Shown here: positions 2,864-35,634 of the stretch, one piece after another | Numbering within the stretch: the first letter of the stretch is position 1 | Layout: every line of letters begins with the position of its first letter | Program-made: the position numbers and the translations under genes | The notes under the pieces: model-generated | The model's input: the letters and a program-made list of their open reading frames with translations, nothing else | Database searches by the model: none | Told to the model about the DNA's origin: nothing | Assembly: GCA_013821615.1 (NCBI GenBank) | Contig: JACDGQ010000001.1 | Coordinates: 1-39,448 of the forward strand | Origin: Planctomycetota bacterium | Lineage (GTDB): Bacteria; Planctomycetota; UBA11346 | Direction of reading: 5' to 3' | DNA length: 39,448 bases

Positions 2864-2872
2864 GTAGGTATT

Positions 2873-3904
2873 TCAGCTATTCATCGCTATCCCATCCTTG
2901 GGCACATGTGCTATCGCACTTTCAATGTGCTTAAGGGACAGGGCTTTAATGTTACCTTCTAGCACAAAATCCTTCGCTGATTCTTCGGCAACGCGGACGA
3001 CACGCGCAGCAGACGAATGTTCGAGTGACTTTGAAATCTTCTTGAATGGAAACCCGGTTTTCAGTGGTAGATTGGAAAGGTGGAGGCGAAGCAACTGTTC
3101 GATCTCATTCAGGCCGGGCTTGGGAATCTCAATAATATCGTCAAAGCGACGGAAAATTGCGTGATCAAGACGGCTGTAAAGATTCGTCGTGGCTACAAGG
3201 AGGCCAGGGCCATCAAAACTCTCCACGAGATCGAGCAATGCATTGACCGTTCTGGCCATTTCACCAACATCCTGCCTATCGCCCGTGCGAGAGCTAGCGA
3301 TGGTATCGCATTCATCTAGGAGCAGCAGGCGCGATCCAGTCCGGCAGGCGTCGAAAATCTTGCGAAGATTGGTCGCCGTTTCTCCTAGATAGCTCGACAC
3401 AACTGCGTCAAAATGCACTTTATAGAGTTGAAGGCCAAGATTGTGCGCAAGTCGCTCCGCTCCGAGCGTTTTCCCGCATCCAGGTGGCCCGTGGAGGAGA
3501 ATTCGACGACGTGGACGAAGGCCAAATTTCGCTAATTCATCGCGGCGCGTGTATTCGGTTTCGATACGTCGGAATTGGGCATCGACTGACGATGGCAGTA
3601 CCATGGCGCTGCGCAGATTCTCTGGGTGCGCTAGCACACCGAGGAACGCACCATCCCTCGATGCTACTGGACTGCCACCAGGGCCGGAACTCACATTGGG
3701 AAGAGGTTTCAGCACCTCCGGGGCACCTACCCGTCGATCGGGGGCATCTAAGCCTTTCTCCATAATCGTTTTGAGCTCGCGCGCCACCTGAGCGTGACCG
3801 AGGCGTTCCTCATCGACCACGATGTCCTCGGCCAGACGCCGAAGATCGGGCTGGGGACTATCTGCGAGCTGGCGGATGAGGCGTCGGAGCAGGTTAACCC
3901 GCAT
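2873..3904 (-). CDS. AAA+ ATPase of the classical AAA/FtsH-Cdc48 type (IetA-like)
   Basis: Walker A is LLHGPPGCGKT and Walker B is LLLLDECD. The second region of homology reads ATTNLYSRLDHAIFRRFD. The track ORF starts at TTG 3946. The first ATG is at 3904 (MRVNLLRR...) with AGGA upstream, so I prefer 3904. Confidence 0.85.
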   Translation of the reverse strand: MRVNLLRRLIRQLADSPQPDLRRLAEDIVVDEERLGHAQVARELKTIMEKGLDAPDRRVGAPEVLKPLPNVSSGPGGSPVASRDGAFLGVLAHPENLRSAMVLPSSVDAQFRRIETEYTRRDELAKFGLRPRRRILLHGPPGCGKTLGAERLAHNLGLQLYKVHFDAVVSSYLGETATNLRKIFDACRTGSRLLLLDECDTIASSRTGDRQDVGEMARTVNALLDLVESFDGPGLLVATTNLYSRLDHAIFRRFDDIIEIPKPGLNEIEQLLRLHLSNLPLKTGFPFKKISKSLEHSSAARVVRVAEESAKDFVLEGNIKALSLKHIESAIAHVPKDGIAMNS

Positions 3905-4006
3905 GGGAGGAGCGTCCTGGACTTGGAAGCCGAGGCAATTGAACAATTGCGCTAGGCGATGGTAGGGGCCGCCACACTTGAGGAAGCAGCAAGGACTTGC
4001 GGATGG

Positions 4007-7935: not shown

Positions 7936-10290
7936 TCACATCCACACCGGGACTTGGATGAAGAAGTCGTAGTGGGCGACGGCGGTGCCGGCCTGTCCGG
8001 TCTTCAGCACGCCACATGCGATGGTCCAGGTGCTGGGTGGAATGGTCTTCGTGCCATCGCCCTGGAGCTGCGTGGTGCTGGTGATCCAGGCCACGGCCAA
8101 GCTGGGGTACTCCGGGTAGAGCGTGATCGAGTAGACGTTCGAGCCGGTCTTGGCGGTGATCTTTCCAACCATCGCCGGATGCTGGCCGTGGCTGGTCCCG
8201 CCAGCGGCAGCGCTGTTCTTCCAGGTGCTCGTGGCCGCGTCATAAGCCAGCACCTGCTTGTCCAGCGGCGCGGTGACGGCCACATCTTCCAGCGCATCCA
8301 GGGTGTGGTTGATGAGCGAGGTGACGCCACTCTTCGAGGTCAGGATCTGCAGCGTGCCGCCGGGATTGCCCGGCAGCCGCGTCGGCGCACCGGTGGCCCC
8401 GCCGACGATCAGATCGCCGACCGTGGTCATCGGGTTGGCCAGCAGGTTGGTTACCGGATCGCCCAGGTGGTAGTCAACCCCGGCGATGGTGAGGTAGTCC
8501 TTCACCAGCTTGGCGTTGGTGACGGTGCCATCGGCGATCTTCGGTCCGGTGACGGCGTTCGCCGCCAACTCGGCGGTGCCCACCGCGTTTGCTGCGATCT
8601 GGGCGTTGGCGGTGGTGCCAGTGAGGTCGCCGCCGAGGATGTGGTCGTGCGGTTCCGGCGGGAAGGTCGCCGGAACGTTGGTGAGCTTCGCCCAGGCCAC
8701 TGAGACGACCTTGGGATCGGTGATGGCGCCATCGGCGATCTCGGCGGTGCCCACCGCGCCGGCCACGATCTGGGCGTTCGCCGTCGTGCCGGTGAGGTCG
8801 CCGCCCACCGCGTGGTCGTGCGGCGTGGGTGGGAACTGAAATGGTTTCCCGGTGACCTCGCCCCAATCGGGCCAGCGGATCGCGGTCTGCGGTGGGCCGG
8901 TGATTTTGGCCCAGGCGACGGTCACGATCTTGGCGTCGGTGATCGCGCCATCCGCCACAGCGACGGTGGTGACGGCGTTGGCGGCCAGCTTCGGGGCGGT
9001 AACCGCACCATCGGCCAGCTTGCCCGTCGTCACGGCGGCATCGGCAAACGCGCCGGTCGGGATCTGCAGCCACTGGAGCGTGCCGCCCACGCGCAGCAGG
9101 GCGCGGTCGTCGGTCGTTGCTGCGAACGCGGCCGGACGAGCCGACGCTCCGGTGGCATTGGCGAGCACGCTGGTGCCAGCTACCTCCTTCAGGTCGCCAA
9201 CTTCGAAGTCGCGGAACTCTGGCTTGGCATCCGCTCCCGACACCGGCCCAGCGAGCACCTGATGCGCGGGCACCGGGTCAGCGACGATCACGTCGCGCGG
9301 CTTCCAGCGTTCGGCAGCAGCATCCCACAACGCGGCCTGCTCATCCGTGGGCGGGACCGTGATCACATCCACATCGGTCAGGTCGGCGAAGCGCTCGGCT
9401 CCGCCACCAGCGCCGGCGCTTCCGGCGCGCACGACGCAGAGGCGATCCTGGGCATGGTGCAGGACCAGACGGCCGTTCTCGCTCGGCTTGGTCGGCGTTA
9501 GGCCACCGGGCACGCCGGGGTCGAGCCAGTAGTCGGTGTGTGGCGTCAGACCGTCCAGACAGCAGATGCCCCACAGCACCAGCAACGCGGTGTCCACGTC
9601 AGGAATGCGGCCAACCACTGCCAGGACATCGGTGGAGCCGACCACACCGGCATCCGCCAATGCCCAGGTCGCACCGGTCCAGCGCAGCACGTCGCCGACG
9701 AACCAGGCGTGATTGGTGGCGGTAACGTCCAGCACGAGATTCGGTGATCCGCCGGCAGCACCACCGGCGGGAAATTGGACGATGCCCCAGGCCACGCCAG
9801 TGCCGGGTTCTTTCCACAGGATGCGCGCACCGCCTTCGTCGCCCGTGGCCAAGCTGCCGGTCTCGTCGGTGACGATCGCCGCGAGTTCGTCCTCCTCGGC
9901 ATCGATGTCGAGGCGCATCGGCGTGACGCCGGCGACCATCGCCCGGCCGACGCCATTGGCGGCGATGGGTTCCTGCAGGATGCAGAAGCGGTTGGCGTGA
10001 TCATCCTTGTCCGGCGAGATGCCGCTGAAGGTGATGCGCTCCTGAAACGCCTGCGGATTCTCGCTCGGCAGAATGAGTGGATCGTCGAGGCCGAGCACGG
10101 CGAAGCGGCTCTGGTCGGTGCCCGAGTCGTTGCGGATCAGGACGATGCCGGGGATCGCCACTGTCATGCCACCATCGGCCGAGCGTGACTGCCGGCTGGC
10201 CTGGTAGGCCGTGGCGGCATCGACGAACGAGTTGAAGGTCTCGGCGGAGATCTTCAGCGGCTGCCCGGCCGCGACCTTGGCGAGCGTCAC
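7936..10290 (-). CDS. Tail fibre or central fibre protein with internal tandem repeats and HxH motifs
   Basis: The 784-aa ORF has repeated segments at aa ~415-598. These include short AVTxxKLA/IADGAITDxK units and two copies of FPPxPHDHxxGGDLTGTTANAQI. Its position is downstream of the tape measure and a Dit-like gene. Confidence 0.7.
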   Translation of the reverse strand: MTLAKVAAGQPLKISAETFNSFVDAATAYQASRQSRSADGGMTVAIPGIVLIRNDSGTDQSRFAVLGLDDPLILPSENPQAFQERITFSGISPDKDDHANRFCILQEPIAANGVGRAMVAGVTPMRLDIDAEEDELAAIVTDETGSLATGDEGGARILWKEPGTGVAWGIVQFPAGGAAGGSPNLVLDVTATNHAWFVGDVLRWTGATWALADAGVVGSTDVLAVVGRIPDVDTALLVLWGICCLDGLTPHTDYWLDPGVPGGLTPTKPSENGRLVLHHAQDRLCVVRAGSAGAGGGAERFADLTDVDVITVPPTDEQAALWDAAAERWKPRDVIVADPVPAHQVLAGPVSGADAKPEFRDFEVGDLKEVAGTSVLANATGASARPAAFAATTDDRALLRVGGTLQWLQIPTGAFADAAVTTGKLADGAVTAPKLAANAVTTVAVADGAITDAKIVTVAWAKITGPPQTAIRWPDWGEVTGKPFQFPPTPHDHAVGGDLTGTTANAQIVAGAVGTAEIADGAITDPKVVSVAWAKLTNVPATFPPEPHDHILGGDLTGTTANAQIAANAVGTAELAANAVTGPKIADGTVTNAKLVKDYLTIAGVDYHLGDPVTNLLANPMTTVGDLIVGGATGAPTRLPGNPGGTLQILTSKSGVTSLINHTLDALEDVAVTAPLDKQVLAYDAATSTWKNSAAAGGTSHGQHPAMVGKITAKTGSNVYSITLYPEYPSLAVAWITSTTQLQGDGTKTIPPSTWTIACGVLKTGQAGTAVAHYDFFIQVPVWM

Positions 10291-18068: not shown

Positions 18069-19709
18069 TTACGCTTCGCCCTTGGCCTTCAGGCCGGCGC
18101 GCGGCTCCTGCAGAGCGACGCCGAAGTCGTGGTAGCCGCGCATCTGCACGCCGAGGGTGGCGAAGTCGGCCTCGGCGGTTTCGATCACCGGCGCTTCCTG
18201 GCCGTTGAGGAAGACCACCTCGATGGCCGGCAGGTCGTTGGGATCGGCCAGCAGATACCACGCCTTGGACGAGTTGCCGGGGTACTGCGGATTCGACAGG
18301 TAGCGGCTGATCTCGACGCGGAACTTGCCCTGGTGCGGGTTGGCCACCGGGTACTTGGCGTTGGCCGTGGTCTCGCGCAGTTCCAGCGACTTAAACAACT
18401 GGGTGCCGATTGCGGAGAGCGACGGCGGCGCCAGCACGATCGCCGGCATGACGCCCAGCGGCTTGCCGTCGGGATCGACCTGCTCGAGGAAGGCCTGCTC
18501 GGCCTTGGTCAGCCCGTCGATCGACAGCGCGGTGTCGGCGCCGGTGAGGAGATTCTTGTTCGCGGCGGTGAAGAACGCGGCGTGGTTCAGGAACACGGTC
18601 CAGAACACGTCGTTGATCTTCAGGCCGGCGCCGCGCCCGAGCTTACGCGGCACCAGGGTGATCGCGCCGAGGTCGTCGTTGATCAGGTCACGCCGATCGA
18701 TCGAGAACGGCATGTTCAGGCAGCGGGCGATCTCGTTGAGGATCTCGTGTTTGAACTCGCCGTAGGTGGTCGTGGGCTGCTCGGCCCGCATCTGCTCCAT
18801 CTTCCAACCGCCGGGCATCGTCAGCAGCGCGCGCTTCTCCAACTCAATGGTGTCCATCGGTTCGACCTGGTCGGCCTCACCTCCGGCCGGCGCGTCGGTG
18901 TAGACGATGCCGGCGTAGTCGGCGGCAGTCTCGGCCGCCGCGATCACCGCCAGGGTGTAGCGACGCAGTTGTGCGAAGAGCGGAATGGCTGGCGTGATCT
19001 CCGGCACGCCCCGGCGCTGGCCCGGTCGGTCGGGACGGAAAAGATGGATCATCGACGCGACCGGGATGCGGTCGTAGTCCTGGCGCATCGAACCGCGTGG
19101 GCTGCCCGGATGCTCCGTGAGGACATGGTACTCGACCGCGTTCCCGGCCGCATCAAAGACGATGCCGTCGACGGCGTTGACCGGCAGCGACGCGACTCCC
19201 GGCGTCGATACCTGATCCGCCTCGATCAACTTGAGGTCGAGTTGCACCGGCGTGGCGAGCGCAGCGTTCGAGGTCAGCAGCGCGAAGGCCTCGCCGTCCT
19301 CCGCCATCGCAACGCGCATGCAGCGCAGCTTCTCAGCCAGATCGACCGTGCGCGCCCAATCGACGAAGGACCGTTCGATGAAGCGCGCATCGTCGCCGCT
19401 GATGCCCATAAGCTGCAAGCGTGGCCCAGTGCCGACGCAGTCGTTGGCAAGCGTGAGCACGATGCCGCGCGCGTAGCTGTTGTTGGCGACCTCGTAACGG
19501 GCACGGTTACGGAGGGTCCGGCGGACGGCCGGCGACGCCGCAGCGTCAGCCGAGAGCCCGTCCGCCAGTGCCCAATGTCTGCGATTGTCATGGTTGGTCT
19601 GGGCCGCGTCGTAGCGGGCGCGGACCACCGTTCGCCGCCCCCCAGGAGCGGCGGCACGCGTGCGGCCGATGGCGCGAACGCCCTCGATGAGCCGACCGAC
19701 GATGCTCAC
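18069..19709 (-). CDS. Chimeric ORF joining a lambda-family portal N-terminal ~340 aa in frame to the C-terminal ~205 aa of a Mu gpT-like major head protein. It is probably a deletion remnant.
   Basis: The N-terminus RYDAAQTNHDNRRHWALADGLSADAAASPAVRRTLRNRARYEVANNSYARGIVLTLANDCVGTGPRLQ is the lambda-type portal signature, and this similarity runs to ...EILNEIARCLNMPF. After that, SIDRRDLINDDLGAITLVPRKLGRGAGLKINDVFWTVFL parallels the gpT segment I recall from Haemophilus FluMu (ISRDDFEDDNLGIYAPIFQEMGRSAAVQPDELIFKLL). The C-terminus ...FATLGVQMRGYHDFGVAL is also capsid-like. The GTG start overlaps the gpW-like stop. Confidence 0.7.
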   Translation of the reverse strand: MSIVGRLIEGVRAIGRTRAAAPGGRRTVVRARYDAAQTNHDNRRHWALADGLSADAAASPAVRRTLRNRARYEVANNSYARGIVLTLANDCVGTGPRLQLMGISGDDARFIERSFVDWARTVDLAEKLRCMRVAMAEDGEAFALLTSNAALATPVQLDLKLIEADQVSTPGVASLPVNAVDGIVFDAAGNAVEYHVLTEHPGSPRGSMRQDYDRIPVASMIHLFRPDRPGQRRGVPEITPAIPLFAQLRRYTLAVIAAAETAADYAGIVYTDAPAGGEADQVEPMDTIELEKRALLTMPGGWKMEQMRAEQPTTTYGEFKHEILNEIARCLNMPFSIDRRDLINDDLGAITLVPRKLGRGAGLKINDVFWTVFLNHAAFFTAANKNLLTGADTALSIDGLTKAEQAFLEQVDPDGKPLGVMPAIVLAPPSLSAIGTQLFKSLELRETTANAKYPVANPHQGKFRVEISRYLSNPQYPGNSSKAWYLLADPNDLPAIEVVFLNGQEAPVIETAEADFATLGVQMRGYHDFGVALQEPRAGLKAKGEA

Positions 19710-19970: not shown

Positions 19971-22241
19971 CTACCGCCGTTCACTGCGCATTGCCGACAA
20001 CTTCAGACGAGACTTTGGAACACCGCTCAGCTTGACGTCGGTGCTGGGCAGACCGACGCCAAGCATCGACGCGCCCACCGCGCATCCGACGACTCCATCG
20101 AACCAATGGTTATCGAATCCTTCGGGCCGCAGGCGCCACTCATCGACCACGCGTCCACGACCTTCGGTCCGCACCCGGTACTCGGCGGTCAGGTGTTCGG
20201 CGATCAGGCGATGCCGCTCCGGATCATGACCTGGAAGCGACAAGCAGCCGGGATCACCCATCGGCACCGCGAGGCGGGTGTGGATGAACGACTTCCAGTG
20301 GTTGGTGTCGTAAAGCAGATGGCGGACGGTGTGCCTGCCGACCACCGCTGGGATGCGCCAATGGAGACCCGTGCGATCGCCGCGTTTGCGGCGGTACTCG
20401 GTGAATGGAATCGACGCTGCGCCGACGAAGCGGCCGTGGCTGGGCGTGATGAGCGCGGTGTGCGGCGACTGCCGGCAGAATTGGTACACCACGTCGGTGC
20501 TCTGACCCCAATTCGCATCGATCAGCAAGCGCTCGATGGTCAACTCAGCTCCATCGTCCCGGCACCAACGCCGTCCCATCAACTGGCTGGTGGCCGCTTC
20601 GAGGCCGGCGTAAATCTGTCCTTCCAGACCGGCGCCCTTGGTGGCCGCCGCCATGGTGATGCGCAGATCCCGCAGGGTGTAATAGGTCCGGCGCTGGTCC
20701 GGCCAGGTTCCGTAGTCGAGGACGTAGCCGGTGAAATCATCACTCCAGCCGCACACCACCCAGAACAGCGCCTTCTGCTGCACGTCGATGAAGGCCGTGA
20801 GGTGGCTGGCATCGAGCGGCACCACGCCGCGCTCGTGACCGTTGATCTTTGCCATGATCAGATCTGCGGTGAGTGCATCGTTTTCCTCGCTGACCTCGGG
20901 CAGCGGCTGGTTCTGGTACTCGGCCCAGAATGCCACTTCGCCCTGGAGCTTGAGATTCATTGCGTGTTGGAGCGCTGAGACTTCGTCGTGGTTGTAGCGC
21001 GCCTCCCAGGCGACGCGGGCACCGGCATCCATCTCGACGCGGTGGGCCACGTAGTACGCGGTGGCATCCGCCAGTCCGCGCCCAGCACGCATGCCGTCAC
21101 CACGCAACTTGGCGTATTCTTCCCAGCGCTTCGTCGCCGTGGGGAAGCTGTAGACCATCTGCGTCCGCTCACCGTTCCATTCCGGATGGAGGTTCCGGTC
21201 GAGAATCCGGTCGGCCATGTCGGCTGGCCGAATCACCGTGCAGGGCATCATCCCAGCGATCTTCTTGCCGGGACCAGCCAAGCCGAGGACCGCACCAGAC
21301 AAGATCGCTTCGCGGTGCTGGCACTGACTTGGTGAGCGTGCGCTCTCGTCGGTCTGTGGATCGTCGAGGACGACAAGCGATGGACGCACCGCACGGCCAT
21401 CCGGCCGCTTGAACTTCATCCCACGGATGCGACCGGTGATGCCGGCCACCTTGATGATCGCTCCGCTGGCTTTCGATCCTGGGATGGTGGGAAGAATGAT
21501 CTCCTTGGCGGTCCAACCGATGTGCGTGCGGCTGCCTCGGAAGAGCTGGCCGTTGGCGCGGTGGGAGATGCCCTCCAAGGCGTGGATGGGATAGACCGCC
21601 TCGGGGAAATCCGCGAGCAGCAGCTCGTTGATCTCCAACTCGGTCTTCAGCGAATCCAGCATGTCCGAGGCGTGCTGTTCATCGGAGCCGATGAGGCAAA
21701 CGAACTCACGGTGCCCGTAGAGGATCGCCCACAGGCAGGCGCATTCTGCGATTGTGGTTTTTCCGGATCCGCGCGGCATGGCGAGCGCGAACAGGCCGCC
21801 TTGCAGGACGGACTCTTCGACCTTGGCGATGACACGCAGGTGATCTTCTGACCAGCCGAGGTGGAAGACCTCTGGAAAATAGGATTCGCAGAACGCACGA
21901 AAGCTGCGCTCGGCAGTCGCCCGACGCGGCGGGTTCTCTACCGGCGGCAGGTCACCGATGTCGCGGCCCGACTCCGACTTCAAGCGGTCGCGGTCGGCAG
22001 TCGCTTCGCGGTGCGTGGCGTAGCCGCCATCGGGTATGCGCTGCGCCGCTGGTGCATGCACCTGGTCCATGAGCCACGCCAAGTAGCGCAGAAGGTCAAC
22101 ACTGCGGCCGTCGCCGATGCGGAAGCCCGCGCGCGTGCGGTGGCGATGGAGCTGCCGCTCGGAGATGACTGCTCCGAGCGCCGAGCTGTTGAGCAGCCGC
22201 GCGAGATCGGCCGGCTTGAGGTGATGTGGATCAACCGGCAT
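19971..22241 (-). CDS. Terminase large subunit (GpA-type)
   Basis: Walker A is AMPRGSGKTT and Walker B is LVVLDDPQTDES. The C-terminal nuclease region reads LIDANWGQSTD ... GFDNHWFDGVVGCAVGASMLG. I prefer ATG 22241 (MPVDPHH). The first ~60 aa look like a Nu1-type winged-helix segment. Confidence 0.9.
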   Translation of the reverse strand: MPVDPHHLKPADLARLLNSSALGAVISERQLHRHRTRAGFRIGDGRSVDLLRYLAWLMDQVHAPAAQRIPDGGYATHREATADRDRLKSESGRDIGDLPPVENPPRRATAERSFRAFCESYFPEVFHLGWSEDHLRVIAKVEESVLQGGLFALAMPRGSGKTTIAECACLWAILYGHREFVCLIGSDEQHASDMLDSLKTELEINELLLADFPEAVYPIHALEGISHRANGQLFRGSRTHIGWTAKEIILPTIPGSKASGAIIKVAGITGRIRGMKFKRPDGRAVRPSLVVLDDPQTDESARSPSQCQHREAILSGAVLGLAGPGKKIAGMMPCTVIRPADMADRILDRNLHPEWNGERTQMVYSFPTATKRWEEYAKLRGDGMRAGRGLADATAYYVAHRVEMDAGARVAWEARYNHDEVSALQHAMNLKLQGEVAFWAEYQNQPLPEVSEENDALTADLIMAKINGHERGVVPLDASHLTAFIDVQQKALFWVVCGWSDDFTGYVLDYGTWPDQRRTYYTLRDLRITMAAATKGAGLEGQIYAGLEAATSQLMGRRWCRDDGAELTIERLLIDANWGQSTDVVYQFCRQSPHTALITPSHGRFVGAASIPFTEYRRKRGDRTGLHWRIPAVVGRHTVRHLLYDTNHWKSFIHTRLAVPMGDPGCLSLPGHDPERHRLIAEHLTAEYRVRTEGRGRVVDEWRLRPEGFDNHWFDGVVGCAVGASMLGVGLPSTDVKLSGVPKSRLKLSAMRSERR

Positions 22242-22470
22242 GGCCGCCTTCCCGGTGCGCGAGATCACGCACCAGCCAAGCGCCATAGGCGATGAGGTTG
22301 ATGGTGGCATCAGCGTTCTGCGGTGCGCCTGCCGCGAGGTCTGCGCGCACCGTGTCCACCGAGGCCTGCCGCGAGCCGCTGCGCTTCAGCAGCAGGACCA
22401 CGGCCTCCACCGACAGGGCGGTGAGACGGGCTCCGCCGGCATCCGGGGCGTTGGGCTTATCAAGTACCAT
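22231..22470 (-). CDS. Possible terminase small subunit or DNA-recognition protein (79 aa)
   Basis: ATG 22470 gives MVLDKPNAPDAGGARLTALSVEAVVLLLKRSGSRQASVDTVRADLAAGAPQN...INLIAYGAWLV. The HTH-like pattern is similar to the N-terminus of TerL. The ORF overlaps the TerL start by 11 nt. Confidence 0.4.
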   Translation of the reverse strand: MVLDKPNAPDAGGARLTALSVEAVVLLLKRSGSRQASVDTVRADLAAGAPQNADATINLIAYGAWLVRDLAHREGGHAG

Positions 22471-22501
22471 CAGCACCTCCGTGGACCGGGCCGGTTCGCT
22501 G

Positions 22502-22591
22502 ATGATGCACCGACCCCACGGTGCCGGACTCAACTGGATGTGGCCGATGTGCATCGGTAACACGAACCGGAGTCACCCACGGAAACGCCCC
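22502..22591 (+). repeat. Copy A of a duplicated 90-nt module preceding an accessory gene
   Basis: The copy contains ATGATGCACCG, an 18-nt variable stretch, then CAACTGGATGtgGCCGATGTGCATcGGTAACACGAAC and 24 further nt up to ATG 22592. Copy B has the same layout exactly 504 nt downstream. Confidence 0.9.
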
Positions 22592-22954
22592 ATGACCGAC
22601 GCCGCCCAAATCCCTGCCACTACCCCCGCCGCCGAAGCCGCTGGGGTGGTGTTCCGCTCCTTCACCCGCGAGGACTGGCACGGCTTCGCCGGCGCCGAGC
22701 GCTTCGCCGACGGCTCGGAGCCCTTGGCCGCCGAAGGACGCGCCACGCTCGCGGCCAAGCGCGCGTGGTTCGTGATCCTCGATGCTACCGGCGGATGCCT
22801 GATGATCGAAGACGACCCGCAGAACGACTTCGGCGGCTACTGCCTTCACCACGCGTTCGCCTCGCCCGCCGACGCCGAGGCCTGGTTCCGCGCCAAGGTC
22901 GGCACCCCGGCCCACCTGCTCGACTTCCTGATGGCCGGCTTCGCCGCCGTCTGA
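22592..22954 (+). CDS. Hypothetical accessory protein A (120 aa, or 150 aa if it starts at ATGATG 22502)
   Basis: The plus-strand frame has sensible composition (MTDAAQIPATT...FRSFTREDWHGFAGAERF...CLMIEDDPQNDFGGYCLHHAFASPADAEAWF). The overlapping 700-aa minus-strand ORF is Arg/Gly-rich junk. I recognised no family. Confidence 0.6.
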   Translation: MTDAAQIPATTPAAEAAGVVFRSFTREDWHGFAGAERFADGSEPLAAEGRATLAAKRAWFVILDATGGCLMIEDDPQNDFGGYCLHHAFASPADAEAWFRAKVGTPAHLLDFLMAGFAAV

Positions 22955-23005
22955 GCCACAGGGAAAAGTACTACCAGCGAACGTGTTCCGCCGATCACCA
23001 ACAGC

Positions 23006-23095
23006 ATGATGCACCGGTTTTTCACAGCGAAACGCAACTGGATGACGCCGATGTGCATGGGTAACACGAACAGCAGTACCCAACGGAAACCAACC
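23006..23095 (+). repeat. Copy B of the duplicated 90-nt module
   Basis: The copy contains ATGATGCACCG, an 18-nt variable stretch, then CAACTGGATGacGCCGATGTGCATgGGTAACACGAAC and 24 further nt up to ATG 23096. Confidence 0.9.
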
Positions 23096-23638
23096 ATGGC
23101 CAAGCGCCCAACCACCCACTCCACCACCCCGACCGCCGCGCCCACCGAGCGCGACGCGGTCATCGCCAGCATCGCCCAGAGCCACCTTGGTCTGGAGACC
23201 ATGGAGAGCCGGAACCAGGACCGCCTCGATTTCCAAGAGCACTCGTGCCTGTCCATCCGCGACGCCCTGCGCGCAGCCTTCGACGCCGGCCGGAAGTCCA
23301 CCCGTCGCCCTGCGCGCACGGCCACTGCGATCGTGGGCGACCTGGTGCTGACCAGCGCGAAGCCCACCGACGGAACGCCCGGCTGGGCCACCGGCCGGGT
23401 CGGCGCCTTCCGCTTCTGCGCCAAGGTCTACGCCGGGCACGCCCTGGTGCCTTCCTACGAGATCGGCCGCAGCCGGATCTCGAAGCTCGAGCTGCGCCGC
23501 CTCGACACCGACGCGGTTGCCTACGCCTGGGATCGCGGCCTCGACATCCCGGCCGCCGACACCGCCGCGCAGGCTGCGGTGGACTCGCTGGCCAAGCACC
23601 TCGCCGAACACCTCTACGGAGCAGCCAGCGTCGGCTGA
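23096..23638 (+). CDS. Hypothetical accessory protein B (180 aa, or 210 aa from 23006). Its N-terminal domain resembles a short domain recurrent in plasmid and phage polyvalent or anti-restriction-associated proteins.
   Basis: The segment ERDAVIASIAQSHLGLETMESRNQDRLDFQEHSCLSIRDALRAAFDAG matches, from memory, the IAxxHLGIETLETRNSDSLDFHEVxVWxxxxALEAAYxAG pattern (DUF6900-like, unverified). A second domain reads FRFCAKVYAGHALVPSYEIGRSRISKLELRR. Confidence 0.55.
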   Translation: MAKRPTTHSTTPTAAPTERDAVIASIAQSHLGLETMESRNQDRLDFQEHSCLSIRDALRAAFDAGRKSTRRPARTATAIVGDLVLTSAKPTDGTPGWATGRVGAFRFCAKVYAGHALVPSYEIGRSRISKLELRRLDTDAVAYAWDRGLDIPAADTAAQAAVDSLAKHLAEHLYGAASVG

Positions 23639-23649
23639 CCCATCACCCA

Positions 23650-23678
23650 CCCGGCCGGAATTCCTCCGGCCGGGTTTC
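23650..23678 (+). terminator. Rho-independent terminator-like hairpin after accessory gene B
   Basis: CCCGGCCGGA-attcc-TCCGGCCGGG forms a perfect 10-bp stem and is followed by TTTC. Confidence 0.6.
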
Positions 23679-23701
23679 ACCACTGCATCACGGAGATTCC
23701 C

Positions 23702-24106
23702 ATGCCCAGCGCCCGCAAACCCACCACCGCCAAGGCGAGCAAAGCCAAGATCAGCACCAAGCCGAAGAACCGGAAGGCCAAGGCCCAACCGAAGCCCGAG
23801 GCGGCGGTCGTTCCCGCCGTTGAACTCCAGGCTGCGGTGCCGCCCGCTGCCGGCCCCGACGCGCCAGCGGGCGCCAGTAAAACGCTCTCTGGCCTGGACG
23901 CCGCCGCGATCGTACTGCGTGAAGCGAGCGCGCCGCTGAACGCCCAGGACCTCGTCGGCCTCATGCTCGAACGCGGCCTCTGGAAGACCGAGGGCAAGAC
24001 CCCGGCCGCGACGATCTACGCCGCGATGATCCGTGAGATCCGGTCCAAGGGTTCGACCAGCCGGTTCCTCAAGGCGGATCGGGGCCGCTTCGCCGCTGTC
24101 GGCTGA
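23702..24106 (+). CDS. HARE-HTH domain protein with a Lys/Ala-rich histone H1-like N-terminus
   Basis: The N-terminus is KPTTAKASKAKISTKPKNRKAKAQPKPE. The C-terminus LSGLDAAAIVLREASAPLNAQDLVGLMLERGLWKTEGKTPAATIYAAMIREIRSKGSTSRFLKADRGRFA fits the HARE-HTH (HB1/ASXL/restriction endonuclease HTH) pattern. GGAG lies 8 nt upstream of the ATG. Confidence 0.7.
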   Translation: MPSARKPTTAKASKAKISTKPKNRKAKAQPKPEAAVVPAVELQAAVPPAAGPDAPAGASKTLSGLDAAAIVLREASAPLNAQDLVGLMLERGLWKTEGKTPAATIYAAMIREIRSKGSTSRFLKADRGRFAAVG

Positions 24107-24120
24107 GAGCACCACCACGA

Positions 24121-25365
24121 TCAGACGCTTCCTGCAGCCCCGGCTTCCGCCGGGGTCTGCTCGTTCATGGCGGCGGCGATGCGATTGGCCTGCTTGCCGG
24201 TGAACTGCTCCCAGCGCTTCACGATCACATCGCAGTAGCGCGGATCGAGTTCCATGAGCCGGGCGTGGCGTCCAGTTTGCTCGGCAGCGATGATGGTGGT
24301 GCCGGAACCGCCGAATGGATCGATGACCACGCCGCCAGGCGCGCAGGAATTTTGCACCAGGTAGAGGAACAGCGGCACCGGCTTCATCGTCGGGTGCTCG
24401 CCGTTGCGGCTCGGCTTGTCGAACTCCAGCACCGTGGTCTGGCAGCGGTCCGACAACCAGGTGTGGCCGGCGCCATCCTTCCAACCGTAGAGGCACGGCT
24501 CGTGCTTCCATTGGTAGTCCTGGCGACCGAGCACCAACGACGACTTCACCCAGACCAAGCACTGGCGCACGGTCAGACCGATCTCGGCGCAGGCCCCGCG
24601 CACGGTCAGTCCCTCCGAGTCGGCGTGCCAGCAGTAGAACGCACCACCGGCGCGCAGCACCGCGACTGAGGTTCCGAGGCTGGCCACAAGGAACTTCCGG
24701 TACGAGGCATCGTCCATGTCGTCATTGGCGATGGTCATCGCCGCGTCGGTGCCGCCCTCGTAGGCGACGTTGTACGGCGGATCGGTGAGCAGCAGATCGG
24801 CGTGGCCACCGTCCATCAGTCGCGCGATGTGATCTGGCTCGGTGCTGTCGCCGCAGAGCAGCCGGTGATCGCCGAGCACCCACAGGTCGCCGGGCTGCGT
24901 GAGGGTCTGCCCAGCATCGGGAACCGGCGGGATCTCATCGGGATCGGTGAGGCCCTCGCGCACACCAGGGTCGAGCAGCTTCGCCAATTCCTCCGCATCG
25001 AAACCCAAGGTGGCGAGATCCAGATCGAGATCGCTGCCCTCGATTGCCTTCAACTCGATGCCGAGCTTCTCCAGATCCCACTCCGCGATTTCGGCGGTCT
25101 TGTTGTCGGCGATGCGCAGCGCGCGGATCTGGTCGGCGGTCAGTTCAACCGCGACATGGACCGGCACCTCGGTGAGGCCGAGCTGCTTGGCAGCGCGCCA
25201 GCGGGTGTGGCCGATGACGATCACGCCGTCGCCATCCACGACGATGGGCTGGCGGAAGCCGAACTGGCGGATGCTCTCGGCCACGGCCGGCACCGCATCG
25301 TCGTTCTGGCGGGGGTTGTTCGTGTAGGGCCGGATGGAGTCGATGGGCCGGAATTCGATGTGCAT
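24121..25365 (-). CDS. ParB-like nuclease domain fused to an N6-adenine/N4-cytosine DNA methyltransferase
   Basis: I chose ATG 25365 (MHIEFRPIDSIRPYTNNPRQN...IVIGHTRWRAAKQLG), which starts the ParB/Srx domain. The methyltransferase motifs are LLLTDPPYNVAY (motif IV) and VIDPFGGSGTTIIAAEQTGR (motif I). No restriction partner is present in the window. Confidence 0.9.
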   Translation of the reverse strand: MHIEFRPIDSIRPYTNNPRQNDDAVPAVAESIRQFGFRQPIVVDGDGVIVIGHTRWRAAKQLGLTEVPVHVAVELTADQIRALRIADNKTAEIAEWDLEKLGIELKAIEGSDLDLDLATLGFDAEELAKLLDPGVREGLTDPDEIPPVPDAGQTLTQPGDLWVLGDHRLLCGDSTEPDHIARLMDGGHADLLLTDPPYNVAYEGGTDAAMTIANDDMDDASYRKFLVASLGTSVAVLRAGGAFYCWHADSEGLTVRGACAEIGLTVRQCLVWVKSSLVLGRQDYQWKHEPCLYGWKDGAGHTWLSDRCQTTVLEFDKPSRNGEHPTMKPVPLFLYLVQNSCAPGGVVIDPFGGSGTTIIAAEQTGRHARLMELDPRYCDVIVKRWEQFTGKQANRIAAAMNEQTPAEAGAAGSV

Positions 25366-25526
25366 GTGGTGGTCCTGGTCAGGGGTGGCGGGGCTGGTCG
25401 GCGGGCAGCCGGACAACCTGGGGAAAGTGACTCGAACTCGGTGGCTGTTCCCTTGGGCAAGGAGGAAGCCATTCGGCGGGGGAGGACCCGTTGATCTGTC
25501 GATCATTTCGACAGTCGATCAGCCGT

Positions 25527-33121: not shown

Positions 33122-33223
33122 CTGTGTCCCCAGGGTCACAGGACTGCGACAGGACTCTGTCCCCGCTGCACAGGTCGCGGGGACTTCTCGAACAGGTTCT
33201 GCGATAGCGCCGTGTCCCCGCTG
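33122..33223. promoter_or_regulatory. Operator-like repeats in the divergent early control region
   Basis: TGTCCCCGCTG occurs at 33158 and 33213, 55 nt apart. An inverted partial copy GCGGGGAC lies at 33177 and forms an 8-bp inverted repeat with 33159-33166. TGTCCCCA occurs at 33125. CACAGGAC and GACAGGAC occur at 33137 and 33148. Confidence 0.4.
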
Positions 33224-33291
33224 TTGGCGTGAGGTGTCGCTCGTTCCGCCGGCGCGTTGCCGGTCGGGACATCAACCCGAGCGAGCCAGCC

Positions 33292-33810
33292 ATGTCCGAT
33301 AGCGTCACCATCACCATCAACACCTACGAAGGCGTCCTGCCTCTCTGGGCACATGAACTCACCCAGGTCTATGCCAAACGGCTGGGATACCGTCCCGACG
33401 AAATCGACGACGGTCTTCAGGAAGTGGCGATCGCCTTCGCCAAGTACCGCTTCGATCACACGCGAAATACCGGTGCCTGCGAACGCACGGCGCAGACCGC
33501 CCTGATCCGCAACGTGCTGCAGAAAGTCCAACGTGGTCAGGTGCGCTACACGCAGCGCCTGGAGTGCCTCCGCGCCGAGCCCCAGCGCCCCGAGGCTGGA
33601 CCCGACACGGTGGCCCAGCACGAACTGTGGCAGGTGGTGGCGGCGATGCCCGAGCCCGACCGCGAGATCTGCTTGCGGCTCGCCGCCGGCATGAACACCC
33701 ACGCGATCGCCAAGGAACTCGACATCGGCTGGTACACGGTGAAGCGCGGCATGGAGCGCATTAGGACCAGCTTCGCCGAAGCGGGCATCGATAGCGGACT
33801 CTTGGCCTGA
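33292..33810 (+). CDS. ECF-like sigma-70 family factor (regions 2 and 4)
   Basis: Region 2 reads LQEVAIAFAKYRFDHTRNTGACERTAQTALIRNVLQKVQR. Region 4 with its HTH reads ELWQVVAAMPEPDREICLRLAAGMNTHAIAKELDIGWYTVKRGMERIR. ATG 33292 is in frame with the track ORF 33229..33810. Confidence 0.65.
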   Translation: MSDSVTITINTYEGVLPLWAHELTQVYAKRLGYRPDEIDDGLQEVAIAFAKYRFDHTRNTGACERTAQTALIRNVLQKVQRGQVRYTQRLECLRAEPQRPEAGPDTVAQHELWQVVAAMPEPDREICLRLAAGMNTHAIAKELDIGWYTVKRGMERIRTSFAEAGIDSGLLA

Positions 33811-33811
33811 C

Positions 33812-34081
33812 ATGCTCCAGCATCATTCCGCTCCGCCGGAACCGGCAGACATCACTGGATGTCCGCCGGAGTCCCGGCAACAGATGAAGGACCAAGGGGC
33901 GAATCCTCGCCCCTTGGCGGATGCCTGGATCAGCGACGACCTCCTTGCGGAAGCCATCGCCGTCTGGTCCCGGCTCTACCGCCGACCGATCGGCAAGGAG
34001 GAAGCCGTGGAAATGCTGCAGAACGTCAAACGCGCAGGCGAGGTGATCTACCGAATCGCTCGGGAGCAGGCTCAACCATGA
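33812..34081 (+). CDS. Hypothetical small protein, possibly a recombination directionality or regulatory factor by position
   Basis: The stop overlaps the recombinase ATG (an ATGA overlap). A shorter start at MKDQG (33884) is possible. I recognised no family. Confidence 0.4.
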   Translation: MLQHHSAPPEPADITGCPPESRQQMKDQGANPRPLADAWISDDLLAEAIAVWSRLYRRPIGKEEAVEMLQNVKRAGEVIYRIAREQAQP

Positions 34082-35613
34082 AGGTGCTGATCTGGACACG
34101 TGTCAGCTCCCGAGAACAGCGCGAAGGCTATTCCATCGACGCGCAGATGCGGGTCTGTCGTGAACGGGCCGAGCGGCAGGGCTGGACGGTGCTCCGCGAG
34201 TTTCAGGTTGCCGAGTCAGCCAAGCGCGGCGCCGAACGACTCGCCTTCAACGAGATGTTCGCGTGGGTGCGGAGGAACGCGAAACGGGAAGGCCTGGAGG
34301 TCATCCTCGCCCACAAGCTCGACCGCGTCTGCCGCAACATGAAGGACGCAGTCCGCCTGCAGGAATTGGAGGACCAATGCGGGGTCAAGCTGGCCTTCGT
34401 CGACAACCAGTTCGGCACCGGCGCATCTGGGGTGCTGTCGTTCAACGTGATGGCGGCAGTGGCGCAGTATTACAGCGACAATCTCCGGTCGGAGGTCCTC
34501 AAGGGTATGGAGGAGAAGATCCGCCAGGGCTGGCCGATGGGCCGGGCGAGCTACGGCTACAAGAATGTTCCCGACAGGTCCTGCCCGGTGGTGCCTCATC
34601 CCGAGAAGGCCAAGACCGTGGTGCAGATCTTCGACTGGTTCTCGACCGGCCAGTACACCCTGGATGCCCTGGGTGACCGCTTGCTCGCCGAGGGCCATGA
34701 GTTCCGGACGACCTACCCTCGGTTCAACCGCACCGCCTTGGCCTACATCCTCCACAACCGGGGGTACATCGGCGAGATCGTCCACCGGGGGGTCTCACAC
34801 GTCGCCAAGTTCCAACCGCTGGTCTCACGGACGACGTTCGATGCCTGCCAGGTGGTGCTGAAGGGACGCAACCGCCGTTCATCCACCCCAGACCTGCCCT
34901 ACCAAGGCGGCGTCTTCCGGTGCGCCCATTGCGGGGCGATGATGACCGGCGAGCGGATCGTCCGCCGGCACAACGACGGCACCGAGGCGCGCCACGTCTA
35001 CTACCGGTGCGCCAACAACGCCCCGCCGGCGGAGCACCCGAAGGTGCGCTGGAAAGCCGCCGACCTGGAAGCTGCCGTTGTCGCCGAGTTGGAGACCCTG
35101 CGCATCCACGACGAAGGACACGCCCAGTTGATTCGCAGCACCCTCAAGGCCGCCTTTGCCGACGTGGCCAAGGCTGAGGAGGATCGCCGCCGCGTTTTGT
35201 TGAAACGCCAAAGCGAGTTGAAGGGGAGACTGGATCGACTGCTCAACGCCTACCTCGAAGGGGTGATCGAGCAGGCTCCGTTCTCGGTCAAGCAGGGCGA
35301 GCTTCGTGTGGAATTAGCCGATATTTCCAGGCAACTTGAGGAGCGGCCGACCTTCGATCCCAAGCGCGGGGAACTGGCCCTGGGGCTCTTCGACTTCATG
35401 CAGAACGCCGCGAATCTGTGGCGGCGTTCAAACATGGAGCAAAGGCGTGAGCTTTTGGCTGCGATAGCTTTGAACCGCAATGTTAGCGACGTAAAGCTTG
35501 TGCTAGAAAAGAGAAAGCCCTTCGACATTGCTGTCGAAGGGCAAGTATTCCATTTTGGTCGGACCGACAAGATTCGAACTTGCGACCTCTACCACCCCAA
35601 GGTAGCGCTCTAA
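34078..35613 (+). CDS. Large serine recombinase (integrase)
   Basis: MKVLIWTRVSSREQREGYSIDAQ carries the catalytic Ser motif of the resolvase domain. The recombinase domain (WPMGRASYGYKN) follows. The Zn-ribbon reads CAHCGAMMTGE...YYRCAN, and a coiled-coil region follows it. The last 58 nt are antisense to tRNA-Pro (...RTDKIRTCDLYHPKVAL). Confidence 0.9.
   Translation: MKVLIWTRVSSREQREGYSIDAQMRVCRERAERQGWTVLREFQVAESAKRGAERLAFNEMFAWVRRNAKREGLEVILAHKLDRVCRNMKDAVRLQELEDQCGVKLAFVDNQFGTGASGVLSFNVMAAVAQYYSDNLRSEVLKGMEEKIRQGWPMGRASYGYKNVPDRSCPVVPHPEKAKTVVQIFDWFSTGQYTLDALGDRLLAEGHEFRTTYPRFNRTALAYILHNRGYIGEIVHRGVSHVAKFQPLVSRTTFDACQVVLKGRNRRSSTPDLPYQGGVFRCAHCGAMMTGERIVRRHNDGTEARHVYYRCANNAPPAEHPKVRWKAADLEAAVVAELETLRIHDEGHAQLIRSTLKAAFADVAKAEEDRRRVLLKRQSELKGRLDRLLNAYLEGVIEQAPFSVKQGELRVELADISRQLEERPTFDPKRGELALGLFDFMQNAANLWRRSNMEQRRELLAAIALNRNVSDVKLVLEKRKPFDIAVEGQVFHFGRTDKIRTCDLYHPKVAL
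35501..35541 (-). terminator. Intrinsic terminator-like hairpin 15 nt downstream of the tRNA-Pro 3' end, lying inside the recombinase ORF
   Basis: On the minus strand CCCTTCGACA-gcaa-TGTCGAAGGG forms a perfect 10-bp stem. It is followed by CTTTCTCTTTTCT. Confidence 0.6.
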
Positions 35614-35634
35614 TCCAGGCTGAGCTACGGTCCG
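35556..35634 (-). tRNA. tRNA-Pro (anticodon GGG) with encoded CCA
   Basis: I folded it by hand as CGGACCG TA GCTC AGCCTGGATTA GAGC G CTACC TTGGGGT GGTAG AGGTC GCAAG TTCGAAT CTTGT CGGTCCG A CCA. All four stems pair. U33 and G37 flank the GGG anticodon, and the T-loop is TTCGAAT. Confidence 0.9.

Follow-up and report, generated by a model that had tools for sequence, protein, structure and literature searches.

A repeated non-coding module, probably a promoter with a short leader, in front of unrelated accessory genes of a prophage

The stretch of DNA discussed here, 39,448 nucleotides (nt) of contig JACDGQ010000001.1 and hereafter called the window, contains a prophage in which a 90-base module occurs twice. 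Each copy ends at the ATG of a + strand gene, within a prophage island that adjoins the terminase genes. The module is probably a prophage promoter combined with a short untranslated leader, duplicated in front of two unrelated accessory genes, referred to below as gene A and gene B. This assignment is put forward with some reserve, because the transcription start site was placed by geometry rather than mapped, and because the -10-like hexamer lacks the usual final T. The initial annotation of this DNA had weighed a coding against a non-coding reading of the repeat. The latter, a promoter or 5' leader, is supported and can be sharpened, as the invariant blocks of the module correspond to a promoter that related phages carry at this position. 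If the promoter cassette was indeed duplicated, gene A and gene B would therefore each have their own transcript.

The duplicated module and its promoter-like features

The module and the elements recognized within it are as follows (coordinates are those of the window):

22502-22590, + strand: module copy A, the candidate promoter and leader cassette, located between gene A and the divergent putative small terminase gene
23006-23094, + strand: module copy B, a cassette of identical type, at the junction of gene A and gene B
22502-22524, + strand: upstream block ATGATGCAC with a type-specific inverted repeat, about -70 to -47 from the predicted start, possibly a regulator site
22535-22540 (copy B 23039-23044), + strand: -35-like TGGATG, a weight-matrix match in which GGATG is invariant in 19/19 aligned copies
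22544-22557 (copy B 23048-23061, imperfect), + strand: near-palindrome CCGATGTGCATCGG in the spacer between the -35 and -10 hexamers, a possible operator
22558-22563 (copy B 23062-23067), + strand: -10-like TAACAC with GG just 5' of it, invariant in 19/19 copies
22571-22572 (copy B 23075-23076), + strand: invariant AG, 8-9 nt 3' of TAACAC, the predicted start as judged from geometry only
22581-22584 (copy B 23085-23088), + strand: Shine-Dalgarno (SD) sequence GGAA, 6 nt before the ATG of gene A

The repeat had been described as a chain of conserved blocks, and pairwise alignment reproduces this layout. The two modules start at 22502 and 23006, an offset of exactly 504 nt. Their 5' part consists of ATGATGCACCG (identical at 11/11 positions), 18 variable nt, CAACTGGATG (10/10) and 2 variable nt, while their 3' part consists of GCCGATGTGCAT (12/12), 1 variable nt, GGTAACACGAAC (12/12) and a partly conserved tail that leads to the downstream ATG, at 22591 for gene A and at 23095 for gene B. 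A 25-nt core has two matches in the window, compared with 0.00 expected from 100 shuffles. Moreover, a repeat search recovers the pair as family D6 (70 nt, 81% identity), and an nhmmer profile built from all known copies detects only these two in the window, where the sub-motifs GATGTGCAT and ATGATGCAC show no enrichment elsewhere. Across copies, the 18-nt segment that appears variable resolves into two types, A and B, each with its own inverted repeat: GCACCG-N6-CGGTGC in the A type (22507-22524) and GTTTTTC-N3-GCGAAAC in the B type (23017-23033), in differing registers. As had been stated, copy A takes up nearly all of the 120-nt divergent gap, the putative small terminase gene starting at 22470 on the - strand. 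Only about 30 nt, containing the ribosome-binding site of the terminase gene, are left for any separate + strand promoter, and this lack of room counts in favour of the module itself being the promoter.

The distribution of the module was assessed by pattern scans of IMG/VR, of 185,579 species genomes and of metagenome contigs. Carriers comprised two IMG/VR contigs, six contigs from five metagenome-assembled genomes (MAGs) and four metagenome contigs, and one more locus (L018) was added by a search with the large terminase. In all, 20 distinct copies were collected, 19 of them full length. Every copy has the same orientation and the same phage context, and, with the exception of L012, the ATG lies within a few nt of the module end. 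In each phage one copy adjoins the small terminase gene, and the other copies precede further small genes. The terminase-adjacent position is kept in loci L001, L002, L007, L012, L015, L016 and L018, and orthologous internal copies, equivalent to copy B, are found in L001, L002, L015 and L016; in L001, only 8 nt lie between the stop of gene A and copy B. At least five unrelated families are represented among the downstream genes, and those behind the module vary among phages. Some copies are mosaics, in which an A-type interior is combined with a B-type 3' part or the reverse (L016_A, L015_B). This portability, together with the constant orientation and the SD-ATG end, supports a promoter.

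The module is limited to the closest relatives of the prophage, those whose large terminase is at least 84% identical. It had been proposed that no described element corresponds to it. This holds for the sequence, which has no match in Rfam and none among GenBank phages by blastn, but not for the kind of element: the sequence family is undescribed, whereas its kind, a phage promoter or moron-type unit, is known and ordinary.

Comparison of the copies brings out the promoter-like geometry. The two hexamers are separated by 17 base pairs (bp) in all 19 full copies, with no insertions or deletions. TGGATG is identical to TTGACA at 3/6 positions and to the TTGATG of related phages at 5/6, and TAACAC has the T at -12 and the A at -11, with a C at -7. 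The AG at the predicted start corresponds to A83 and G84, both invariant in alignment A2. L018_B, the most diverged copy, is without the spacer block, yet both hexamers and the downstream gene are kept. The near-palindrome pointed out in the initial annotation is present at 22544-22557, its counterpart in copy B being the imperfect CCGATGTGCATGGG. Its suggested role as an operator is possible, but the symmetry lends it no support (the G-C pair that completes it is found in only 9/19 copies).

The closest parallel to the module was found by reading, in about 50 relatives, the divergent gap that precedes the small terminase gene. In at least 17 distinct large-terminase relatives, a single sigma-70-like promoter occupies this divergent position with the orientation of the module and points into the island. 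It has the form TTAATTGCC-TTGATG, followed by 17 bp ending in GG and by CTKAAT, TAACAT or TAACTG, with an SD-ATG 12-75 nt further 3'. The window module reads CTGGATG-N15-GGTAACAC, with GGTAAC after N15; the corresponding sequences, likewise with GGTAAC after N14-15, are CTTGATG-N15-GGTAACTG in L024, CTTGGCG-N15-GGTAACTG in L048 and CTTGATG-N14-GGTAACAT in L057. When a weight matrix was built from the relatives only, the two module sites ranked 15th and 16th of 78,840 window positions.

Position, orientation and a short leader with SD-ATG are thus shared with the divergent promoter of L024, L029, L048, L057, L058 and others. The differences are also clear. The -35 hexamer is TTGATG in the relatives and TGGATG in the module, and the -10 hexamer is TAACAT or TAACTG in the former and TAACAC in the latter, over a spacer of 16-17 bp ending in GG. 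Just 5' of the -35 hexamer, the relatives have a TTAATTG element, whereas the window lineage has ATGATGCAC and the inverted repeat, in addition to a conserved spacer block. Finally, the relatives have one copy of the promoter per genome and the window lineage has two or three copies of the module.

One further site was observed with the same matrix. Its fifth-ranked match, TTGATG-N17-GGACAT at 33320 on the - strand, lies inside an open reading frame (ORF) at 33136-33813 (- strand), about 180 nt before the stop of that ORF, and the next - strand genes lie downstream of it. A further phage promoter of this type is possible there.

In the proposed mechanism, each module would be a self-contained + strand expression cassette. 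A sigma-70-type promoter, composed of the -35 hexamer TGGATG, the 17-bp spacer and the -10 hexamer TAACAC, would start transcription about 8 nt past the -10 hexamer, at the invariant AG (~22571 and ~23075); the ATG would then be reached through an unstructured ~20-nt leader that includes an SD sequence. The promoter would be ancestral at the terminase-divergent position, with copy A as the version of this lineage, and duplication of everything between about -70 and the ATG would have placed the cassette before additional accessory genes. The block ATGATGCAC with its inverted repeat (~-70 to -47) and the spacer sequence CGATGTGCAT may be regulator-binding sites, or else their likeness may have been kept by gene conversion, a possibility that arises because the mosaic copies L015_B and L016_A exist.

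Several points weigh against this interpretation. The predicted start sites derive from geometry and the invariant AG alone. The hexamers match the Escherichia coli consensus at only 3/6 and 3/6 positions, and a generic promoter scan placed no site at the module. TAACAC is without the usual T at -7, and the CTKAAT common among the relatives is without the usual A at -11 in this register; these deviations leave doubt about the exact -10 register and about the sigma factor. An alternative resembling promoters of extracytoplasmic function (ECF) sigma factors, GRAAC (alignment columns 37-41)-N15-CGAT, is possible. The weight-matrix rank is good, yet not the top one, and the host is apparently a planctomycete, a group whose promoter rules are poorly known. 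Moreover, a plain promoter does not account for why the 5' block ATGATGCAC and the spacer block are conserved, and the mosaic copies L015_B and L016_A suggest gene conversion, so that the apparent constraint may be inflated.

Other sigma factors were considered by eye. Sigma-54 was rejected, as the GG-to-GC spacing is 15 or 9 and not 12, and neither sigma-28 nor sigma-32 gave a fit.

The host is probably a planctomycete, because the closest proteins to the flanking AcrB-type gene are planctomycete ones (at most 60% identity) and because two carrier MAGs are labelled Planctomycetota. A literature search on planctomycete promoter rules found no consensus for these hosts. The comparison offers a candidate promoter motif, TTGATG/TGGATG-N17-TAACAY/CTKAAT, for an uncultured phage group that probably infects planctomycetes.

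Coding capacity, history and packaging

The module is non-coding. Both copies are open and in frame with the downstream gene, as had been noted (ORFs 22292-22954 and 23006-23638), and an ATG is retained at the 5' position of the module in all copies (ATGATG, ATGATT or ATGAGG). Translation from ATGATG would thus give both proteins an N-terminal extension, or produce a leader peptide of about 30 amino acids (aa). At 68% G+C, however, open frames are common by chance, and the shared 30-aa N-terminal tag considered in the initial annotation is not supported, given the flat codon-position entropy, the broken frames and the downstream SD sequence. The check for 3-nt periodicity proposed there was run across the copies, and none was present in the variation of the module. 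In the ATGATG frame, codon-position entropy is 0.532/0.544/0.530, compared with 0.52/0.53/0.85 in gene A and 0.71/0.64/0.86 in gene B; in other words, both genes show a third-position excess of variation that the module does not. Within the conserved blocks the nucleotides themselves hardly vary, and synonymous changes are nearly absent. An in-frame TAA splits the module from the gene in L012, and in L014 and L018_B the ATG is 1 nt nearer, which breaks the frame.

The ribosome-binding signals point in the same direction. GGAG or GGAA is located 6-9 nt 5' of the downstream ATG in every copy, whereas no SD sequence precedes ATGATG, an absence that had already been reported and is confirmed. An independent public gene call also puts the start of gene B at the downstream ATG. 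Use of ATGATG as a translation start is therefore scarcely credible. If the promoter reading is true, the gene starts are 22591 for gene A and 23095 for gene B rather than ATGATG, and each accessory gene can be annotated as its own transcription unit.

The similarity between copies could also be mainly historical, the result of recent duplication and gene conversion, with the module serving at most as a homology patch for cassette swapping and having no function beyond its ribosome-binding site. The mosaic copies L016_A and L015_B fit such a history, as does the variation among phages in the genes behind the module. However, the 18-nt interior has fully diverged while the flanking blocks are identical, the hexamers persist even in L018_B, and copy A coincides with a promoter conserved in distant relatives. 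A purely historical origin is accordingly regarded as decidedly unlikely.

The position of copy A, which abuts the start of the putative small terminase gene, raises another alternative, namely that the module is a DNA packaging signal, such as a cos site or a set of terminase-binding repeats. The large terminase is of the lambda gpA type, and GATG occurs five times in the module, both of which would suit this function. Nevertheless, further copies lie 0.5-2 kb away, within the accessory island, and each copy has a fixed association with a downstream SD-ATG that lies on the strand opposite to the terminase genes, which makes a packaging role extremely improbable.

A dispersed repeat of the repetitive extragenic palindromic (REP) or miniature inverted-repeat transposable element (MITE) kind was rejected in view of the few contigs that carry the module, its two copies in the 39-kb window, its single orientation and its single phage context.

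RNA structure and the hammerheads of related phages

The module is not a structured RNA. With Rfam 15 at the gathering threshold, the only match in the whole window is a tRNA at 35559-35634. At E <= 10, nothing relevant was found in 22300-23300 and 23500-24200, the best values within the module (E 2.8-6.8) being noise. Minimum free energy folds of individual copies differ between copies on both strands, and RNAalifold, applied to 19 copies, yields no consensus fold (-1.0 kcal/mol for the + strand and -2.8 for the - strand). Folding z-scores of -0.65 and -0.15 are no better than those of shuffles, and the predicted 20-nt leader is unstructured. A check for covariation, also proposed in the initial annotation, revealed none that supports a helix. 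In the ATGCAC/GTGCAT stem and the CCGAT/ATCGG hairpin, there are no pairs changed on both sides, only disruptions, and in a mutual-information scan the covariation amounts to the dichotomy between A-type and B-type copies.

Two related phages carry self-cleaving RNAs in comparable places:

L025 2636-2699, 2947-3013 and 3279-3351, - strand: three type II hammerheads (RF02276), 48.6-61 bits
L024 3397-3460, - strand: a single type II hammerhead (RF02276); the copies of L025 and L024 together score 46.6-61 bits

L025, whose large terminase is 65% identical to that of the window, has a promoter at the first position of its island and hammerheads at three internal junctions, 28-37 nt 5' of each ATG (the gathering threshold is 37 bits). 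Stems I and III vary among these copies with pairing kept. The junctions are those at which the window lineage repeats the promoter module, between successive small accessory genes. Among 17 further relatives examined with Rfam, a ribozyme was found in L024 alone, and direct-repeat searches in eight relatives revealed no analogous module, the sole exception being the L025 hammerheads. In the window, RF02276 has no match even at E <= 10, the L025 hammerheads serving as positive control.

Some sequence likenesses were recorded around the module. Its 5' end, CTGATGATGCACC (window 22499-22512), is similar to the 3' ends of the L025 hammerheads, CTGATGATGGCAGCC, which may reflect a ribozyme relic or coincidence. 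Upstream of internal copies (window 22955-23005), CGTGTG or GGTGTG stands exactly 23 nt before [CGA]ATGA[TG]G. This arrangement occurs in five internal copies from four phages (window/L015/L016, L002_B, L002_C, L009_B and L010_C), the first three of which also have GATYACYAAC upstream; L001_B, L017 and L018_B are without the upstream sequence. In addition, a hairpin at 22995-22973 was flagged as terminator-like on the - strand.

These observations give some room to the idea that the module acts at the RNA level, as part of a 5' leader or between cistrons, where a protein or an RNase would bind or process it, with transcription starting from ATGATG or further upstream. Such an element would do the job of the hammerheads, separating or regulating cistrons, at junctions equivalent to those that carry type II hammerheads in L025 and L024. 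Its distance from the ATG is nearly constant, its 5' [CG]ATGAT could be a -10 hexamer, CGTGTG or GGTGTG lying exactly 23 nt upstream of it in five internal copies, and the resemblance of CTGATGATGCACC to CTGATGATGGCAGCC fits as well. On the other hand, conserved secondary structure and covariation are absent, the strictly invariant positions coincide with the -35/-10 geometry and with the promoter of the relatives, copy A occupies the promoter slot of those relatives and not the ribozyme slot, and the terminase-adjacent copies have no upstream CGTGTG. Taken together, this alternative appears unlikely.

In a more specific version, the module would be a self-cleaving ribozyme of a new class, taking the place of the hammerhead at these junctions. 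Weinberg and co-workers reportedly found, in 2015, new ribozyme classes in this kind of neighbourhood. The syntenic slot is that of the type II hammerheads of L025, and CTGATGA and CGAAAC are both present in some copies. This is nonetheless very improbable, as no ribozyme of Rfam matches at E <= 10, the stems show no compensatory changes and the folding energy equals that of shuffles. The would-be core is not conserved either: internal copies have CATGATG, L001_A has CAGATGA, and A-type copies have no GAAA. A parse as a type I, II or III hammerhead through CTGATGA and CGAAAC was tried and rejected, since the core is unconserved and stems II and III cannot be drawn.

More generally, the module might go beyond a promoter and be an undescribed RNA-level processing or regulatory element, possibly a new self-cleaving motif or the target of a phage factor, which this lineage would use in place of the type II hammerheads. 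A small probability is reserved for such a role because of the hammerhead synteny; the structural evidence points against it.

The prophage island and comparison with known systems

The genes and structures around the module are listed below:

33859-35613: serine integrase, adjoining the tRNA at 35559-35634
24121-25506, - strand: ParB-methyltransferase
19971-22241, - strand: large terminase, lambda gpA type
22231-22470, - strand: putative small terminase subunit, divergent from copy A, assigned from position alone, with no family match
22591-22954, + strand: gene A, 120 aa, with no family match
23095-23638, + strand: gene B, 180 aa, with precomputed Pfam matches DUF6900 and DUF7678
23702-24106, + strand: gene C, with a lysine-rich N-terminus and a HARE-HTH domain (PF05066, E = 1.3e-12), the last gene of the island
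23650-23677, + strand: GC hairpin CCCGGCCGG-N7-CCGGCCGGG followed by TTT, 3' of gene B, conserved

Genes A, B and C form a short + strand island between the methyltransferase and the terminase genes. The two terminase genes overlap, the stop of the putative small one with the start of the large one; the prophage also has replication genes and, on the - strand, a lambda-type portal. The hairpin at 23650-23677 is kept after every homologue of gene B, with changes in both arms, and may be a partial terminator or an mRNA-stabilising hairpin; gene C, which comes next, has no module. This hairpin also resembles stem I of the L025 hammerheads, the catalytic core being absent.

Several observations concern other parts of the window. 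About 30 nt beyond the stop of gene C, a perfect 8-bp GC hairpin, GCCCCGGC-TTCC-GCCGGGGT (24137-24156), overlaps the 3' end of the convergent ParB-methyltransferase gene; this hairpin probably acts as a terminator and may serve both transcripts. A single ORF of 546 aa at 18069-19709 (- strand) matches the lambda-family portal over residues 49-337 and a phage capsid family over residues 335-541, which could indicate a fusion, a mis-joined frame or a domain misassignment. Within the - strand ORF at 7936-10290, the region 8504-9050 contains 37-nt direct repeats (five copies, 70-100% identity) and a 130-nt repeat, probably encoding repeated protein modules of a tail or fibre protein. Additionally, positions 1-4000 have 51-58% G+C, compared with 63-72% in the remainder, and include an AAA ATPase gene at 2873-3946; this part may mark the other end of the prophage or have been inserted separately.

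Among known systems, the island resembles the morons of lambdoid phages, which are accessory genes with their own promoter and terminator. Here, too, varied small accessory genes lie near prophage structural genes, each apparently with its own promoter. Unlike morons, the window lineage reuses one promoter and leader sequence for successive genes. With respect to the terminator, the hairpin at 23650-23677 after gene B is terminator-like, whereas none is clear after gene A in the window.

Another comparable system is the start-associated sequence (SAS) and extended start-associated sequence (ESAS) of Cluster K mycobacteriophages, in which each genome has 10-20 copies of the 13-bp SAS, with a proposed role in translation (Pope et al. 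2011, PMC3203893). Like the module, SAS/ESAS is phage-specific, keeps one orientation, includes the ribosome-binding site and is locked to the starts of non-structural genes of varied families, and in both systems some copies have an inverted repeat upstream. The module differs in its length of 90 bp, its two or three copies and its promoter geometry, and the sequences are dissimilar.

The type II hammerheads (RF02276) provide the comparison closest to this phage group. It has been proposed that hammerheads flanking single genes in prophages divide long transcripts into mRNAs of one gene each (Perreault et al. 2011, PMC3088659). The module shares with them the junctions of small genes and probably the outcome, single-gene mRNAs. 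Unlike them, it lacks the hammerhead core, the three-stem fold and any Rfam match, and it also takes the first slot of the island, which in hammerhead phages contains a promoter instead of a ribozyme. Related phages would thus have taken two routes to what is apparently one outcome, one mRNA per accessory gene: a repeated promoter cassette in the window lineage and a polycistronic RNA cut by hammerheads in its relatives. This contrast bears on the open question of what purpose prophage hammerheads serve (Perreault et al. 2011, PMC3088659).

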